A stretch of 26,414 bases of DNA from Dehalococcoidales bacterium (GCA_028711795.1 JAQTRN010000001.1:14080-40493); one strand, 5' to 3'. Positions 2,521 through 13,135 are shown, numbered from the stretch's first letter. Numbers and translations: made by a program. The notes: a model not told the origin generated them from the sequence alone.

Positions 2521-2808
2521 CTTCCTCGGTTTATTCCAGTACGGGGAATTGCAGTCGGGGCAGAATCGGGGCATCTCCTGCGTACGCGGTAACCATTTGT
2601 GGCCACAGCGGGTACATTCCAGGGTGTTTTGCAGCCCCTGATTAACGAGCCAGCCCAATGTTTTGCGGTTGACGTCTCCACAATCAACCCCATTTACAGC
2701 TAGCGTTCCAACAAAATCAGGGAACAGGTTGATATAGGTCTGGATAGATTTCAGCCCGTGAATGGGGCGATTGCCTGTTACGTTTAAAACTATATCTGTA
2801 TTAGTCAT
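2512..2808 (-). CDS. Zinc-ribbon protein (CxxCxHxWxPR...CPxCxSPYWN)
   Basis: Start moved to ATG 2808 (RBS AGGAG, 7-nt spacer); C-terminal CTRCGHKWLPRTQEMPRFCPDCNSPYWNKPRK; 98 aa. Confidence 0.75.
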   Translation of the reverse strand: MTNTDIVLNVTGNRPIHGLKSIQTYINLFPDFVGTLAVNGVDCGDVNRKTLGWLVNQGLQNTLECTRCGHKWLPRTQEMPRFCPDCNSPYWNKPRKVK

Positions 2809-2818
2809 CGTAAAACTC

Positions 2819-3229
2819 CTAGTATTCGTCCCAATGCCGAGGGCATAAATCCCGCCCGGCTCCACTATTCCAGGTGGCGTTTGTGCTGCCACATTTGGCG
2901 CAGTGTTTAATCCTGGCCCGCTCCTGCCGGCTCAATTCAATTAGCTTGCCCATAACCTCCTCGAATGTTTTCCCGTGGCGGGCATTGTGTTCCAACCAGT
3001 GTTTTTCGCACATAACCCGTGATCCTGCGGTGCCTGAACAATATACTCGCCTGGAGATTTGGGTGTGTATCCCGTCGTGAATTTCGCATTCAACGCAGGA
3101 ACTCTCCCTCCAGCAGATTTCGTCCCATGATTGCTCTTGTTTCCGGTTAATTTCTATGGCTTTTAATTCAGCTAGGTTCTCAGCCGACTGGTCGACGTCC
3201 TGCGGTATCCGCCCGATTCCGTATCCCAT
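2819..3229 (-). CDS. Cys/His-rich hypothetical protein
   Basis: RBS AGGAGGG; 136 aa with CVEC, CEKH, CAKC and CPRH motifs; directly downstream of a consensus promoter. Confidence 0.7.
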   Translation of the reverse strand: MGYGIGRIPQDVDQSAENLAELKAIEINRKQEQSWDEICWRESSCVECEIHDGIHTQISRRVYCSGTAGSRVMCEKHWLEHNARHGKTFEEVMGKLIELSRQERARIKHCAKCGSTNATWNSGAGRDLCPRHWDEY

Positions 3230-3259
3230 CTCGTTTCCCTCCTATTTCTAACTATCCTT

Positions 3260-3288
3260 ATATTACTATGGTTATATAGGTATGTCAA
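3260..3288 (-). promoter_or_regulatory. Sigma70-type promoter for the antisense two-gene cassette
   Basis: On the - strand: TTGACA (3288-3283), 17 nt, TAATAT (3265-3260); AT-rich context. Confidence 0.75.
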
Positions 3289-3316
3289 TAGGCCAAAATA
3301 CCTAGTTTCTATTTTA

Positions 3317-3466
3317 GCGGGCTGTCCTACCCCCAGCCCGTCGCCCTCCTTTCCGGCTCTGGTATCCCTTACTCTACCCCCTTTCCTGGGGCGGGCTTGA
3401 GTCTACGGATTCGCCCGCCCCAAAGTATTTTAACTTGCCAGTAGGATACCGAATCTGGCGGTTTAA
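3317..3466 (+). other. Structured non-coding leader upstream of terS
   Basis: Hairpin GCGGGCTG/CAGCCCGT (3317-3341); long hairpin 3388-3421 capped by C(TACG)G; GGTATCC (3361-3367) pairs with GGATACC (3444-3450). Confidence 0.45.
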
Positions 3467-3507
3467 GCACTATCTTGTCAACAAAAGGTGCCCAATTAGG
3501 CGGACAA

Positions 3508-4167
3508 ATGAGCGCATTACTCAATCAAAGATGGGAACTGTTTTGCATCAGGCTATGTGAGGGCAGAACCCAAACCGAAGCGGCAATAGTGGCCGGGTAT
3601 AAACCGAGCCGGGCACGTCAAACAGGTGCGCGGCTGGTAACAATTGGTGACATCCAAACCCGCCTTCAAGAACTTCGTCAAAAGGCCGAGGACGCTACGG
3701 TAATGAATGTCCTGGAGCGCAAGCAGCGCCTTACCGAGATAGCCAGGGCGAAGCTAACCGACTTTATGGAACTCGGCCAGGATGGTTCGTGGGTGAACAT
3801 CGGTGCCGAAACACCGAACGGGGGAGCCATCCAAGAGATTCATTCCCGCACCGAGTATGACGATGATGGAGCCCACCCGACAGTCCACACCAGCGTCAAG
3901 CTCCACGACCCGGTGAAGGCCATTGACCTCCTGAACAAGATGGACGGGATTTACAAGGCTGAAGGTGCGGGAAATGAGGGGGAGGCGGTAAAGCAGAATG
4001 TCAACGTCGTTATCATCAACGGGGATGAAGTCGCCCTTGCCGTCATCGAGCTCCTACGATGTGGGGCAATTGGCGGCCTTATTGAAGCAGGTGCGCCTCC
4101 AGTGGACGAAGTACATTCCCCACAAGCCGACACCGAAGCAGCTCGCCTTCCTCTTGCTCAAAAGTGA
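3508..4167 (+). CDS. terS: Terminase small subunit
   Basis: N-terminal HTH (FC..L.EG.TQTEAAIVAGY...ARQTGARL) plus KLHDPVKAIDLL motif of the Terminase_2 type; ATG 3508 preferred over TTG 3475. Confidence 0.9.
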   Translation: MSALLNQRWELFCIRLCEGRTQTEAAIVAGYKPSRARQTGARLVTIGDIQTRLQELRQKAEDATVMNVLERKQRLTEIARAKLTDFMELGQDGSWVNIGAETPNGGAIQEIHSRTEYDDDGAHPTVHTSVKLHDPVKAIDLLNKMDGIYKAEGAGNEGEAVKQNVNVVIINGDEVALAVIELLRCGAIGGLIEAGAPPVDEVHSPQADTEAARLPLAQK

Positions 4168-7888: not shown

Positions 7889-7923
7889 GTTATCCGATTT
7901 AATAGCCCTTTTTGGAGGTAAAA

Positions 7924-9570
7924 ATGCCTTACACCGTAGATACCCCACCGGAAGCAGTCAAAGGACTTCCCGAGCACGCCATTGAAATATTTGTCGCCGC
8001 CTATAACTCGGCTTTTAAGCAGTACGAGGGGGACGAGGCCAAGAGCGCATCAGTGGGTTGGGCCGCCGTCAAAACCAAGTTTGAGAAGAAGGACGACAAG
8101 TGGGTGGCGAAGGAATCCCTTAACATCCTGGCCGAAATCATCCAGGAAGCCGGGAGACGGGGCAAGGTAAACGACCCGAAGGTGCAGAATGTTATCTCAA
8201 ACCCCGATGATGCCGAAGCCGCCTCCGTCCTGTCCTGGCTGAAAGAGCAGAAGCTTGTCAAGGTAGAGGACGGGCAGAACTATCTGTCAGAAGCCTTCGC
8301 CTTCGCCCCTTCCGACAATCCTATCGACTGGAAGTTAAGGTTGTGGGAGGACCCGGAGAAGAAGGTTACCAAGCACCAACTTGATAAAGCGGCAGCTTAC
8401 CTTTCACCCGGGGGGTACAAGGGGCAGAAGGTGGAAATCGCCAAAGAGCCCCTTCCCTCTGTGAAAAGGAAAATCCGGGCTGAATACCGGATGCTCGGCG
8501 TTGAAGAGGACGACATCCCGAAATGGGTGAAAGAAACCGAGTCCCGTACCATCGTTGGCGACTACATTCCTCTCACCGAGGCGAAGGTATCCGGTAAGGG
8601 AACGGCGTTAATCACCGTTATCAAGCCCGGATTTAACGCCACTAAAGAGAGATACTACCCGGCTGATATGCTGGCCAGGGATTACAAGGTGTTCGAGGGC
8701 GTGAAGATGTATGCCGACCACCCTTCTGAATCAGACGAAAAGAATCGCCCCGAAAGGTCTATCAAGGACTGGGTGGCCACTCTTCAGAACGTCCGGCCGG
8801 ATACTACAGGGGCAATCGTTGGTGAGGCCGTTGTGGTCGAACCCTGGATGAAGGAAAAACTGTCCACCTTACGGGATAAGAACCTGCTCGGTGAGATGGG
8901 CGTATCCATCAACGCCATTGGGACGGCAACAAAGGCCGAAATCGAGGGAACGAAGACGAACTATATCGAGAAGATAGCCCGGGCCCGCTCGGTGGACTTC
9001 GTGACTGAGGCGGGAGCCGGTGGGGGAATACAGCTATACGAATCAGTAAACGAGTTGGATGTTGACCTGGTTGGGGTTGAAGTTCTCAAAGAACGGAGGC
9101 CCGACCTGGTGAAGCAAATAGAATCCGCCGTTAGAGCGGAAGTACAGATGGAGGTCAAGCGAAAAATGGAGCTTGAAGAGAAGAACAAAGAACTGGAAAC
9201 CACCATTACCACCCTGACGGCGGAACTCACCGACCTGAAGGGCAAAATCACCGAAGCAGAGAAGGCGCAGAAGGTAGCCGAAGCCAAGTCCAAGATTGAC
9301 GAGGCCGTAAGCAAGTCCGAACTGCCCGATGCTGCGAAGGCGAAGCTGCTCGAACGGTTCAAGGGCGCCGAGACCGCCGAGGGGATCGCCGAGGCCATCA
9401 CGTCCGAGACCGCCTACATCGCCGCCCTGAAGGAAACCGGCAAGGTCAAGAACCTGGGCGGCAGCGTACCAGACCCGAAGGCCGACGCTGACGCCCTGAA
9501 AGTGAGCTTCAAGAGGATGCACCCCGACTGGAGCGACCGACAAATTGAGATTGCCGTCGCCGGGAGGTAG
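7924..9570 (+). CDS. ChaB-domain / prohead protease / scaffold fusion protein
   Basis: Start moved to ATG 7924 (GGAGGT). N-terminal ChaB-like MPY..P..V..LPEHA..IF..AYNSA..Y...A...W.AVK; protease motifs YADHP, GVSINA and SVDFVTEAGAGG; C-terminal coiled coil. Confidence 0.85.
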   Translation: MPYTVDTPPEAVKGLPEHAIEIFVAAYNSAFKQYEGDEAKSASVGWAAVKTKFEKKDDKWVAKESLNILAEIIQEAGRRGKVNDPKVQNVISNPDDAEAASVLSWLKEQKLVKVEDGQNYLSEAFAFAPSDNPIDWKLRLWEDPEKKVTKHQLDKAAAYLSPGGYKGQKVEIAKEPLPSVKRKIRAEYRMLGVEEDDIPKWVKETESRTIVGDYIPLTEAKVSGKGTALITVIKPGFNATKERYYPADMLARDYKVFEGVKMYADHPSESDEKNRPERSIKDWVATLQNVRPDTTGAIVGEAVVVEPWMKEKLSTLRDKNLLGEMGVSINAIGTATKAEIEGTKTNYIEKIARARSVDFVTEAGAGGGIQLYESVNELDVDLVGVEVLKERRPDLVKQIESAVRAEVQMEVKRKMELEEKNKELETTITTLTAELTDLKGKITEAEKAQKVAEAKSKIDEAVSKSELPDAAKAKLLERFKGAETAEGIAEAITSETAYIAALKETGKVKNLGGSVPDPKADADALKVSFKRMHPDWSDRQIEIAVAGR

Positions 9571-9573
9571 AAA

Positions 9574-9729
9574 ATGCACATCCTGGAACAGAAAAGCACC
9601 AAGCAAAGGATTGCCTTCGCTCTCAAGTGCAAAGTTGAGGAAGTCCCTGACACCCCGGAGAAAATCAAAGCAGCTCTTGAAAAGCGCCGGGGCGAACTGA
9701 AGGTGGCCAAGGCGGTGAAACATGGCTAA
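9574..9729 (+). CDS. 51-aa basic protein missing from the ORF track
   Basis: RBS GGGAGGT at 9562-9568; MHILEQKSTKQRIAFALKCKVEEVPDHPEKIKAALEKRRGELKVAKAVKHG; overlaps the next start. Confidence 0.6.
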   Translation: MHILEQKSTKQRIAFALKCKVEEVPDTPEKIKAALEKRRGELKVAKAVKHG

Positions 9730-10192
9730 TCCGTATACCAACCCTTACGAAGAGGTTGCCGGCCGCCAGGTTTCCTCTACGTCCGAAGGCCGCCACATCA
9801 ATATCGAGGAATCAAGCCTGATTCACCCCACGCACCCTGATGGTTTGGTTGATAAGGGCGACCCTGTCGCCTTCTTCGACGGCGTAGGGGTGGCTCTGAA
9901 ATCGGCGGAATCAGCAACCGAGTCCATCCCCATCGAAACCGAAGGCGTCTGGAGACTATCGGTCACCAACACCGGAGTCAACACCTTCGGGAACATCGTC
10001 GTCGGCCAGGTCCTCTACATTGACGCCTCGGGCGTCGTTTACGACGAGTGGAGCACATCCTACGCCGTTTTTGGCTACGCCCTTGAGCCGATTGCCGACC
10101 CTGGGGTAGGAGACCCTATCACCCAGGTAATCGCCGTCAAGGTTCACTGGCAGTGGCCATTTTGGTATTACACCACCGACATAGAGGCTTAA
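9722..10192 (+). CDS. Capsid cement/decoration protein, DUF2190-like, paralog 1
   Basis: KGDPV..GVGVA..A.....TEGVW...GQVLYI...FGYA...IAVKV pattern; between scaffold and capsid genes. Confidence 0.8.
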   Translation: MANPYTNPYEEVAGRQVSSTSEGRHINIEESSLIHPTHPDGLVDKGDPVAFFDGVGVALKSAESATESIPIETEGVWRLSVTNTGVNTFGNIVVGQVLYIDASGVVYDEWSTSYAVFGYALEPIADPGVGDPITQVIAVKVHWQWPFWYYTTDIEA

Positions 10193-10207
10193 AACAAGGG
10201 GCAGTTA

Positions 10208-10702
10208 ATGGTTGATTTTTGGAATCAGGAAGCTGAAGTTGCCGCGAATCCGTACCTGAACGCATACGCGCTTGCCGGCGAGGAAATCAGTTCAACCTAC
10301 GAAGGCAGGCACGTATTGATACAGGAGGTTGTGCTAGTCCATGCCGACCCAGGCGACGGGCTGGTTGACAAAGGTCAGCCGGTAGCCTTCTGGGAGGGCG
10401 TCGGAATAGCACTACAGTCTGCGCAATCAACAGCCGACAATATCCCCGTAGATACTGAGGGGATATGGCGGGTATCGGTAGTGGCAACGGCATCCATCAA
10501 AATCGGCCAGTCACTTTTCATTAACACTTCGGGAGTCGTTACGGACGACCCGACAAACGCTATGGCCGTATTCGGGTATGCGCTACAGACAATTACGGTA
10601 GCAGACGGCCCGGACACGGAAATCATAGCGGTCAAAGTCCACTGGATGAGCCTTAACTGGTTGTGGTTATTCTGGTGGCTCATCTATGGCCAAGAACCAT
10701 AA
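10208..10702 (+). CDS. Capsid cement/decoration protein, DUF2190-like, paralog 2
   Basis: Shares SSTYEGRH, DGLVDKG, DTEGIW, FGYAL and AVKVH with paralogs 1 and 3; Trp-rich tail. Confidence 0.8.
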   Translation: MVDFWNQEAEVAANPYLNAYALAGEEISSTYEGRHVLIQEVVLVHADPGDGLVDKGQPVAFWEGVGIALQSAQSTADNIPVDTEGIWRVSVVATASIKIGQSLFINTSGVVTDDPTNAMAVFGYALQTITVADGPDTEIIAVKVHWMSLNWLWLFWWLIYGQEP

Positions 10703-10720
10703 AAATTAGGAGGTAAAACA

Positions 10721-11719
10721 ATGCCTGCATTGTATCTGGCAACTGGCAAAACCGCTGGGGAGGAAATCTCCAGCACCTATGAAGGTCGGCACATTACTGT
10801 TGAGGAGTCCTACCTTGCCCACGCCTACCACGCCGATGGCCTGGTTGACAAGGGAGACCCCTGCATCATCGGAGAGAACATCGTCGGCGTAGCGTTGAAC
10901 AGCGCGACCGCCGCAACCGACCTCATCACCCTGGACACGGAGGGTATCTGGTTTCTAAACGTCGTGGGTTCCGTTTCCGACGGCACCAGCGACGGTATCG
11001 CCAAAGCCCTCGTCCCGGGCGATGTGGTCTACATCGAGCAGACCCCCGGCGCCGGCGTCAACCTGTCCGGTGAGTCAGACCCGAACCGCTTTAAGCAGTT
11101 CGGCTATCTGCTCGGCAATGTATCCGCTCACGTGACCACCGCAACCCTCGTGGCCGTCAAGGTTCACGGTGAGGGAGTCCCAAACAACGGGGTTTTGAAC
11201 TTCGGTAGTGGGAGCACTGCCGGGTTCAACTTCCCGCTTGAGGGTGATGTCGCACTCAGGAACAGCGTGCTTATCCGGGCAACCATTGAGCCGGCCACCA
11301 TTCTACTGGCTGGCGAGCAGCTTCACGGCTTCAACATCCGGATTGTTGATAATGCCATCAGCACCGGCGGCGAAATCACAGCCGGCGAACTGAAAGCCGT
11401 CCGCGACGAGGCCACCGACGCTACTGTTTCCTCGGCCACCGCCCTGAAACTGAACGTCGATAACAAAAACGGCGGTGTCGCCCCCTTCCTGCGTGCCCTG
11501 GACATTATGATTGAGGGTGCTCCGGGCACGACCCCTGCCAAGCGCTCCGGCATCCACTTCAATTCTTCCGGTACTGCCGGCACGCTCGAAGCCCTCATCG
11601 AGCTTGAGGCCTTCACTGTCCTCGGAGGCGTGGCCTCGGACACCCTGAACACCCCGTCCGGCACCATCGCCGTCAACGTGGCCGGGGTAATCCACTACAT
11701 CCAGCTCTACAGCACTTAG
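10721..11719 (+). CDS. Capsid cement protein, DUF2190-like, paralog 3, with about 180-aa beta-rich spike/fibre extension
   Basis: Same core motifs up to AVKVH, then a Gly/Ala/Thr-rich extension ending TPSGTIAVNVAGVIHYIQLYST; RBS AGGAGGT. Confidence 0.8.
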   Translation: MPALYLATGKTAGEEISSTYEGRHITVEESYLAHAYHADGLVDKGDPCIIGENIVGVALNSATAATDLITLDTEGIWFLNVVGSVSDGTSDGIAKALVPGDVVYIEQTPGAGVNLSGESDPNRFKQFGYLLGNVSAHVTTATLVAVKVHGEGVPNNGVLNFGSGSTAGFNFPLEGDVALRNSVLIRATIEPATILLAGEQLHGFNIRIVDNAISTGGEITAGELKAVRDEATDATVSSATALKLNVDNKNGGVAPFLRALDIMIEGAPGTTPAKRSGIHFNSSGTAGTLEALIELEAFTVLGGVASDTLNTPSGTIAVNVAGVIHYIQLYST

Positions 11720-11727
11720 GAGGCTAA

Positions 11728-11973
11728 ATGCTGAAAGATTCAGTCAGCACTCGACAATCGCAATATACCGTCCAGATAGGGAAGCTGGCGTACGAACGAC
11801 TGCAACTTATGAGACGAGTGGATGAGATTGACAAGCTCATTTCACAACTCGAAGGGGCGCAGTCCGAAAATACCCAGTCCCTGAAGGACATCCAGACCCA
11901 GGAAGCCATCGACAAGGCCCAGAAAGAGGCCGCTGAAAAGAAAGCGGCTGACGCAGAGCAACCAAAAAATTAA
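11728..11973 (+). CDS. Small coiled-coil protein, possible fibre assembly chaperone
   Basis: RBS GGAGG; heptad pattern; directly follows the extended cement gene. Confidence 0.6.
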   Translation: MLKDSVSTRQSQYTVQIGKLAYERLQLMRRVDEIDKLISQLEGAQSENTQSLKDIQTQEAIDKAQKEAAEKKAADAEQPKN

Positions 11974-11986
11974 CGGAGGTAATCAA

Positions 11987-13135
11987 ATGCCTGACTTTAT
12001 GAAACTGATGGAGGACTGGAGGGGATATGTATCCCTTTCAGAAGTCAATAAACCGGAGGGCTATGAGGCCCGGCTCAAGGAAACCATTGACCTGCTAACC
12101 AACGCAAAGGGCTTTCCGCAGCACCGTCACGAGTACCTGCTCCGTGAAGCCCTGACCACTTCCGACTTCCCCTACCTGTTCGGCGACGTGCTGGACAGAC
12201 AGGTGCTGGCCAACTATAAGGCCACCGACCCCGTCTGGAAACAGTTCGTCCGCATGGGGACAGTCCCCCGCATCTACCCCCAGGTGGGTGGTTACCGCTT
12301 CGCCATTACCGGCGGAGACCAGCACCTTGACCTGGTAGCGGAAAAAGGTGAGTACCTTGCTTCCGACCGGAACGAGCTGCGCGACATCATCTACGTCCGG
12401 AAATATGGCCGCCAGTTCGACATTTCCTGGGAGGCCATCATCAACGACGACCTCGGCGCCCTACAGGACACCCCGGTCCGGTTTGCCACGGCAGCCGTGA
12501 GAACCGAGCACCGGCTGGTATCCACCACCTACGTCAACGACCTCGGTACTCATGCTGGCGGGAACCTGTACCAGAACGCCATCAACGAGGACGTGCTCCC
12601 CCTGACCATCGCCAACCTGGAGAACACCATCGAGGCCATGCAGGGGCCGCTGTTTGTGGACGTGAACGGCGAACCCATCCAGAACCGGCCGAAGTTCCTG
12701 GTCGTCGGCCCTGCCCTTGAATTCACCGCCCGCCAGATTCTCACCAGCACGATGAAGATGTGGACGTACGGCGGAGACGATGAAGCGGCAGCCGTTCCCT
12801 ACCCGATGAGCAACGTCATCAGCCAGTACGGGCTTGTCCTCGTGATTGACCCGTACATCCCAATTCTGGACGCTTCCTACCCCGGGAGTTGGTATCTGTT
12901 CAGCGACCCGAAGGACATCGCTGCACTGGAATGCGACTTCCTGGCCGGACACGAGAGACCGGAAATCTGCATGAAGGCCAGCGACAAGGTAAGCGTTGGC
13001 GGAGGCGAGCTCGGGCCCATGTCCGGCGACTTCGCTACCGACAACGTGTTCTACCGCGTGCGTGAGGTTTTCGGCTGCAACAAGCTGGTCGCGACCGGCG
13101 GGTGGAGAGCCACCTATATGCAGCGCCATGCCTAG
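11987..13135 (+). CDS. Major capsid protein (HK97 fold, Mu gpT-like)
   Basis: TTSDFPYLF, YGRQFDISWEAIINDDLGAL and PKFLVVGPALEFTA motifs; strong RBS GGAGGT; GC3-rich codons. Confidence 0.92.
   Translation: MPDFMKLMEDWRGYVSLSEVNKPEGYEARLKETIDLLTNAKGFPQHRHEYLLREALTTSDFPYLFGDVLDRQVLANYKATDPVWKQFVRMGTVPRIYPQVGGYRFAITGGDQHLDLVAEKGEYLASDRNELRDIIYVRKYGRQFDISWEAIINDDLGALQDTPVRFATAAVRTEHRLVSTTYVNDLGTHAGGNLYQNAINEDVLPLTIANLENTIEAMQGPLFVDVNGEPIQNRPKFLVVGPALEFTARQILTSTMKMWTYGGDDEAAAVPYPMSNVISQYGLVLVIDPYIPILDASYPGSWYLFSDPKDIAALECDFLAGHERPEICMKASDKVSVGGGELGPMSGDFATDNVFYRVREVFGCNKLVATGGWRATYMQRHA

Follow-up and report, generated by a model that had tools for sequence, protein, structure and literature searches.

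Conserved aromatic C-terminal tails on short cement proteins of uncultured tailed phages, a candidate clasp of the cement trimer

The closest described counterparts of the proteins analyzed here are the plain PF09956/DUF2190 proteins, such as that of Clavibacter phage CMP1 and those of many uncultured phages, which share the family, the fold and the capsid-adjoining position but are ~112-145 aa long and end at ..VKVH plus 0-3 residues, without an aromatic tail. In phage T1 (PDB 9kzj), a short cement protein, gp49 (158 aa), is accompanied by a long one, gp48 (255 aa), with an additional, outward-directed C-terminal domain; both homotrimers of gp49 and heterotrimers in which one gp48 joins two gp49 subunits are formed (PMC11945409). 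The locus described below resembles T1 in having short and long beta-tulip paralogs, the long one extended at the C-terminus at the point where the short one ends, an arrangement shown here by alignment of the paralogs with one another. It differs in that gp49 has no reported Trp-rich tail and sequence similarity between the two sets of proteins is undetectable; furthermore, heterotrimers are established for T1 and only proposed for the present proteins. The phi29 head fiber protein gp8.5 rests on the capsid with a base made up of residues 1-116, from which residues 117-280 protrude as the fiber (PMC6542822; PMC7602432). This protein (PF11133; base, PDB 6qyy) likewise has a trimeric N-terminal base of the same fold class, from which the C-terminal part exits along the axis, but that part is a 160-residue helix-turn-helix supercoil as opposed to the 14-19 mostly aromatic or hydrophobic residues found here. 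The C-terminal tail of the phage L protein Dec is disordered in the monomer and becomes a three-stranded, trimer-holding element on the capsid (PMC7602432). Dec has an unrelated OB-fold, and its 40-residue tail forms a beta-helix and is not Trp-rich; hence, the comparison concerns only how the tail works. The foldon of T4 fibritin, a C-terminal trimer-holding segment, provides another comparison of this functional kind. Finally, the HIV-1 gp41 MPER and indolicidin/tritrpticin are Trp-rich interfacial peptides, amphipathic or cationic, that act on membranes; clustered Trp and favorable interfacial partitioning are common to these peptides and the tails described here, without homology.

The window analyzed is a stretch of 26,414 nucleotides from a Dehalococcoidales bacterium (GCA_028711795.1, JAQTRN010000001.1:14080-40493). 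It belongs to a phage-like contig of 40.5 kb, binned in a 1.4-Mb MAG, that has replication genes upstream and lacks a host flank. In the 14 kb preceding the window (G000:C114:1-14079, L039) lie genes for D12 and N6/N4 DNA methylases, an IstB-like ATPase, an MCM/AAA protein and a ParB-like protein but no host genes; overall, the contig resembles a phage genome more than an integrated prophage. The window contains a tailed-phage head module on the + strand, in which the cement genes lie between the protease-scaffold and capsid genes:

7912-9570, + strand: ChaB-protease-scaffold protein (Pfam and PHROG matches)
9722-10192, + strand: paralog 1 (p1), short cement/decoration protein of 156 aa, PF09956 core plus aromatic tail
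10148-10189, stop codon 10190-10192, + strand: tail of p1, WQWPFWYYTTDIEA, with the family motif HW[MQ]-[YW]-P-[YWF]-W-[FYW]-Y-[TD]
10208-10702, + strand: paralog 2 (p2), short cement/decoration protein of 164 aa, PF09956 core plus Trp-rich tail
10643-10699, stop codon 10700-10702, + strand: tail of p2, WMSLNWLWLFWWLIYGQEP, five Trp, helix predicted at residues 151-161
10721-11719, + strand: paralog 3 (p3), long cement paralog of 332 aa, the core of p1/p2 up to AVKVH followed by a domain of ~180 aa
11728-11973, + strand: small coiled-coil-like protein, recovered in 10/27 related loci
11987-13135, + strand: major capsid protein (PF25209 Phage_capsid_4, E = 1e-34)

Both short proteins match PF09956 (Phage_cement_2, DUF2190), p1 with 40.6 bits and p2 with 32.7 bits against a gathering cut-off of 24, and both match PHROG 122 ("head decoration"). 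Together with the fold model presented below, these matches bear out the initial annotation, which took the two proteins for capsid decoration paralogs and placed their tails at 10148-10192 and 10643-10702, exactly where they are found. The long paralog p3 aligns with p1 at 42% identity over the core, which is common to these proteins up to AVKVH. The major capsid protein would provide the surface on which the cement trimers sit. The nearest relative of this protein (11987-13135) in cultured viruses comes from the archaeal Methanoculleus viruses L4768 and Blf4 (37.5% identity over 82% of the protein), where it is annotated as Clp-protease-like. Ribosome-binding sites were read in 9705-9721, 10193-10207, 10703-10720 and 11970-11986. 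The p3, coiled-coil and capsid genes have GGAGG sites, and the two short tailed genes have the weaker sites AAGGCGG and AAGGGG, which suggests that the short tailed proteins may be made in lower amounts than p3.

The composition of the tails was compared with that of the 28 + strand ORFs scanned in the window (7537 residues), in which Trp accounts for 1.39% of the residues. At this frequency, five Trp within 12 residues are expected by simple arithmetic with p ~4e-7 per position and ~3e-3 over the scanned residues. The two most negative 14-mers on the Wimley-White interfacial scale among these ORFs are the two tails (-12.6 and -6.4 kcal/mol), followed by a 14-mer of -4.8 kcal/mol. The interfacial sum reaches -13.5 kcal/mol over 15 residues of the p2 tail and -7.5 kcal/mol over 8 residues of the p1 tail, compared with roughly -6.7 kcal/mol computed for the HIV-1 MPER. 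Both tails thus combine strongly negative interfacial energy with clustered Trp, the properties of the MPER-like class, and this extreme interfacial hydrophobicity makes it physically plausible that they are sticky toward membranes or other hydrophobic surfaces.

The length of the tails bears on one form that such stickiness could take. The hydrophobic run spans 12-15 residues in p2, 9-14 residues in a p2 subtype in which it is broken by G-V-P, and 8 residues in p1. A transmembrane helix needs roughly 19-20 residues, so that, with a run of 8-15 residues, a tail-anchored or single-pass membrane protein was rejected. For the same reason of length, it appears very improbable that the tail is a tether in the infected cell, that is, a C-terminal anchor that would keep unassembled cement protein on the host membrane, or in micelle-like oligomers, for as long as no expanded capsids are available. 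Such a role would suit a hydrophobic segment located at the C-terminus, but no cleavage site or partner is evident.

Conservation of the tails was assessed in a set of 5.8 billion proteins, in which the search with p2 yielded 323 clusters at 90% identity, 120 of them listed, and the search with p1 yielded 144 such clusters, 114 of them examined; the two sets overlap in part. All 120 listed p2 clusters (63-93% identity) contain the motif AVKVH-W-M-[SAG]-[LV]-[NP]-W-x-W-[LF]-x-W-W, with 4-8 Trp in the last 30 residues and with at least four Trp and at least five aromatic residues among the first 14 residues of the tail. The p1 motif, AVKVH-W-[MQ]-[YW]-P-[YWF]-W-[FYW]-Y-[TD], is present in 107 of the 114 clusters examined, and the other seven (P0019, P0029, P0044, P0067, P0087, P0103 and P0234) are of the p2 type; at least five aromatic residues occur in the first 14 tail residues of all 114. 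In the p2 alignment, W146, M147, W151, W153 and W156 are invariant or nearly so, whereas positions 152, 155, 158 and 159 vary among hydrophobic residues, a pattern that gives one fixed Trp face on the predicted p2 helix. The tails are therefore strongly kept across homologue clusters, and the objection raised in advance in the initial annotation, that they might not be conserved, falls away.

Because Trp has a single codon, conservation of Trp alone does not separate selection on the protein from selection on TGG-rich DNA or RNA. Codons were therefore aligned across the window, a second contig from the same MAG and 27 IMG/VR loci. Within the tail, codons for Leu, Asn, Gly, Val and Pro change synonymously between loci while the residues are kept, which indicates selection on the protein and largely refutes an RNA-level explanation. 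Moreover, positions that vary do so by non-synonymous changes that leave them hydrophobic or aromatic, and the position of the stop codon is kept within a few codons in >230 clusters, at odds with a meaningless read-through extension as well. A nucleic-acid feature or read-through origin is hence barely credible; the tails are translated and selected at the protein level. Analysis of mutual information further indicated covariation of tail positions 148-154 with core residues 89 and 122, a pair that switches from V+F to L+I; this clade-linked pair was the only one to emerge from ~120 related sequences, so the signal is suggestive at most and may be purely phylogenetic.

A HMMER profile search of 1.84 billion representatives identified 298 relatives, which place the tails in the context of the wider family. 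Among the best 150 of the 298, plain short relatives end at ..VKVH plus 0-3 residues, whereas long relatives, of ~204-507 aa overall, continue with VKVH-[WF]-[DNSG]-P and a further domain. Given that plain relatives stop and long ones extend at the same point, the core ends at VKVH, and the tail is a lineage-specific add-on; both tails in the window begin directly after the last core strand (AVKVH). This result agrees with the view in the initial annotation that aromatic tails are unusual for a cement protein. A few short clusters among the same best 150 relatives have other aromatic tails (HWDGLWWVWMNW, HWMDTGVWWVWFWLF, HWMFWWWFF and HAYQILFPWWLF); thus, the motif is fixed within subfamilies, and only the aromatic composition is kept at greater distance. 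In some p1-type members, the aromatic motif is followed by a two-heptad helix, e.g., ..YYDLRVEDLEDRVLALENP. Collagen-like repeats after the core were not found in the fetched homologue set.

The tailed proteins have so far been encountered in uncultured phages. A tblastn search with p2 against 50,697 phage records of cultured phages (INPHARED) gave no match, a search of the ESM Atlas only found the PF09956 clusters again, and PDB sequences searched with a profile of the family alignment yielded nothing beyond chance matches to coagulation factor V (E ~1). A full-text literature search returned no description of a conserved, almost purely aromatic C-terminus of a cement protein, with up to 8 Trp in 14 residues.

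To place the tails on the protein, p2 was modeled with AF2 as a single chain on a 77-sequence alignment. The core was predicted with a pLDDT of 88.5 and a pTM of 0.80. The last strand of the core is long (residues 136-147) and leads into the tail, where a helix made up solely of hydrophobic residues is predicted at 151-161; confidence in the tail was only moderate (pLDDT of about 64-81). Foldseek matched the p2 model to decoration proteins of phiCD508, Sf11, T1/FCWL1, HFTV1, Pam3, BB1 and TW1 and to the N-terminal base of the phi29 head fiber gp8.5. The Foldseek probability was ~1.0 for phiCD508, Sf11 and the gp8.5 base, but the TM-scores were only 0.35-0.68. As modeled, the cement core is a beta-tulip-type decoration fold. 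Among the predicted viral structures of BFVD, Foldseek retrieved plain DUF2190 proteins of 112-120 aa along with many long proteins in which the cement fold is the N-terminal base, in chains of up to 1489 aa; some of these long relatives are annotated as capsid fiber or preneck appendage. The AF2 model of p3 was of moderate quality (pLDDT 65-85), and its Foldseek matches, which include the T1 and FCWL1 cement chains also matched by p2, involve solely the N-terminal domain. The ~180-aa C-terminal domain of p3 matched no Pfam family and no solved fold, so that it gave no orientation.

A similar-looking segment, ..I.V.G..Y.I.LY, closes several p3 homologues (within P0389-P0496), including ones with a different middle part of the domain; in the window p3, AF2 predicts a beta-hairpin at this segment (residues 313-330). 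Two of the p3 homologues are labeled as proteins of Methanoregula sp. MAGs.

The orientation of the fold bears on the suggestion in the initial annotation that the tails could act as plugs in the capsid shell. In this fold, the long paralogs, the phi29-type fibers and the T1 gp48 domain all project outward from the C-terminus, and a plug in the shell is less likely because of this exit point. More generally, we consider quite improbable a capsid-facing or inter-trimer anchor, in which the tail would fold back and occupy a hydrophobic pocket in the major capsid protein or, alternatively, pair with the tail of a neighboring trimer across a two-fold axis to give a cement network. A greasy tail does need a partner surface, and the C-terminal helices of adenovirus protein IX, which link triskelions, offer an analogy. 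Both termini of lambda gpD also reportedly lie on the capsid-binding side, facing the capsid; if so, orientation differs among beta-tulip subfamilies, which counts for such an anchor and against an outward location of the tails. In the closer structural relatives, phi29 gp8.5 and T1 gp48, however, the chain leaves outward, and long paralogs and fibers start at the same residue as the tail. Furthermore, the tail covaries, if at all, with residues of its own core and not demonstrably with the capsid protein.

The genomic neighborhood of the tailed proteins was examined for a constant partner. The gene order of protease-scaffold, cement and capsid is the same in most of the 27 IMG/VR loci, and the capsid gene is present where a locus reaches far enough, often with the preceding coiled-coil gene. 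Of the 21 IMG/VR loci in which the downstream gene can be seen, 19 have a long p3-type gene directly after the short tailed gene; the remaining two, L007 and L008, have it upstream of the capsid gene. The short/long pairing recurs in loci L002-L027 and L040-L046, four contigs retrieved by protein look-up included. Some contigs have the p1 type as the sole short gene (L040, L041 and L042/L043), others have the p2 type as the sole short gene, and the triple p1-p2-p3 recurs on independent contigs (L044/L045 and L046); p1 and p2 also occur together on a second contig of the same MAG, which ends before any p3. Contigs with only one of the two types indicate that the short partner of a long paralog can have either type of tail. 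The short tailed gene itself varies in position: it follows the capsid gene in L007, L008, L010 and L011 and precedes the protease-scaffold gene in L014.

These loci also allowed comparison of the tails with the C-terminal domains of the long partners. The p3 C-terminal domain has been swapped repeatedly without tracking the tail subtype; for example, the "IPINIDGV..IPV.AW" type of p3 C-terminus occurs with all three p2 tail subtypes. Docking of the tail on the p3 C-terminal domain was accordingly rejected: tail subtype and domain type do not covary, which speaks against a fit specific to this variable region.

Our preferred reading, held tentatively and at a little under even confidence, is that the tails converge at the outer axial face of the trimer, where they form an aromatic clasp. 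By analogy with other members of the fold family, the chain would leave the trimer on its outer, axial side at AVKVH-W, and with three subunits on a three-fold or quasi-three-fold capsid site the tails would come together, as three short Trp-faced helices in p2 and as three WxYPYWFY turns in p1. They could then pack into an aromatic mini-bundle or cap, with the invariant Trp face in contact, and hold the trimer together in the manner of the C-terminal tail of phage L Dec or the foldon. In 2:1 heterotrimers, as the T1 analogy suggests, the clasp may also secure a pair of short subunits around the p3 stem. The axial meeting of the tails, their mostly buried state and the formation of hetero-oligomers are all inferred from such analogies. 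Burial in the trimer core, named in the initial annotation as a result that would speak against sticky tails, is what this reading favors.

Several observations point toward a structural role of this kind. The two-heptad helix that follows the motif in some p1-type members implies that the three C-termini must lie close together. Retention of the tail while the p3 C-terminal domain is swapped fits a structural part and not a host-specific adhesin, and the five invariant positions, together with the covariation of tail and core, likewise favor a structural part over an adhesin. In addition, phiCD508 carries 420 copies of gp48 and Sf11 415 copies of gp40 per head; if the present head is decorated to a similar extent, exposure of hundreds of tails, at some -13.5 kcal/mol each, would be hard to keep. 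On the other side, since the p2 helix is hydrophobic at every residue, a three-helix bundle would still be greasy on the outside, which counts against the clasp.

A second reading develops the main idea of the initial annotation: the tails would stay largely solvent-exposed on the outer face of the trimer as an adhesive knob, with Trp-rich patches that bind membranes, vesicles, S-layers, glycans or hydrophobic particles and so raise the rate of encounter with the host. We regard this as possible but doubtful. The tails do sit at the outward exit point of the fold, and the p2 tail partitions more favorably into interfaces, as computed, than the MPER. At larger distances, composition is conserved rather than motif (e.g., HWDGLWWVWMNW, HWMFWWWFF and HAYQILFPWWLF), as would be expected also for non-specific binding to membranes or surfaces, and adhesion roles are known for the decoration proteins Hoc, pb10 and gp8.5 (PMC7602432). 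Conversely, the tail is kept while the p3 C-terminal domain, which is more likely to be the adhesin, is swapped; exposed by the hundreds, tails this hydrophobic would be expected to make virions or the free protein aggregate; five invariant positions are more than non-specific lipid binding needs; and the p1 motif comprises only 8 residues and is rich in Tyr and Pro. That exposed tails make the phage head a particle that binds membranes and hydrophobic surfaces, with a capsid-borne interfacial adhesin, is a proposal from sequence that we consider unlikely. On this proposal, a head would present ~140 trimer sites with up to three MPER-like Trp clusters each, by geometry with T=7 assumed for a 40-kb genome, and the adhesin would serve a large group of uncultured phages, possibly those of wall-less, S-layered hosts such as Dehalococcoidia, in dwelling on cells, vesicles or organic particles.

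Dehalococcoidia are wall-less, and two clues to the host would accord with exposed tails, both of them weak: the MAG has no match to PBP transpeptidase, and relatives are binned with Dehalococcoidia. The MAG (82% completeness) was searched for McrA, archaeal S8e and PBP transpeptidase, in each case with a negative result; a search for dehalogenase was negative as well, but the control for dehalogenase also failed. Relatives are binned not only in Dehalococcoidia but also in Gammaproteobacteria and Woesearchaeota MAGs, and such mixed binning makes the binning unreliable.

The tailed cement family is large, with 323 and 144 clusters that show some overlap, and is absent from the cultured phages of INPHARED. 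Decoration proteins serve as display platforms and as models of capsid reinforcement. If the aromatic clasp is real, it would be a very compact natural trimerization tag and would explain the co-assembly of short and long cement paralogs; if the tails are instead exposed, they would represent a new way for the head of a tailed phage to adhere to membranes or particles.

Related contigs showed further features of the head module. The second contig of the same MAG (G000 contig C51, L029/L030), of ~3 kb, carries protease-scaffold, p1-type and p2-type genes; its p1-type tail is HWMWPWWYYTDSNPPWGP, and its p2-type gene has 80% identity to the window p2, from which it appears that two related phages are binned in one MAG. 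In a close relative (IMGVR_UViG_3300037067_004068, L001:1979-4028), the gene for the major capsid protein is interrupted; its two parts, 1979-2488 and 3408-4028, have 96% and 94% identity to the window capsid protein. The ~0.9-kb gap between them contains an antisense Cys-rich ORF (2640-3326, - strand), HNH-like by eye, and the split is probably due to an intron or to insertion of a homing endonuclease. Another ORF that is HNH-like by eye, of 186 aa and without a Pfam match, lies between the p1-type and p3-type genes at L040:5478-6038, on a contig that is binned as Chloroflexi RBG_13_54_8.
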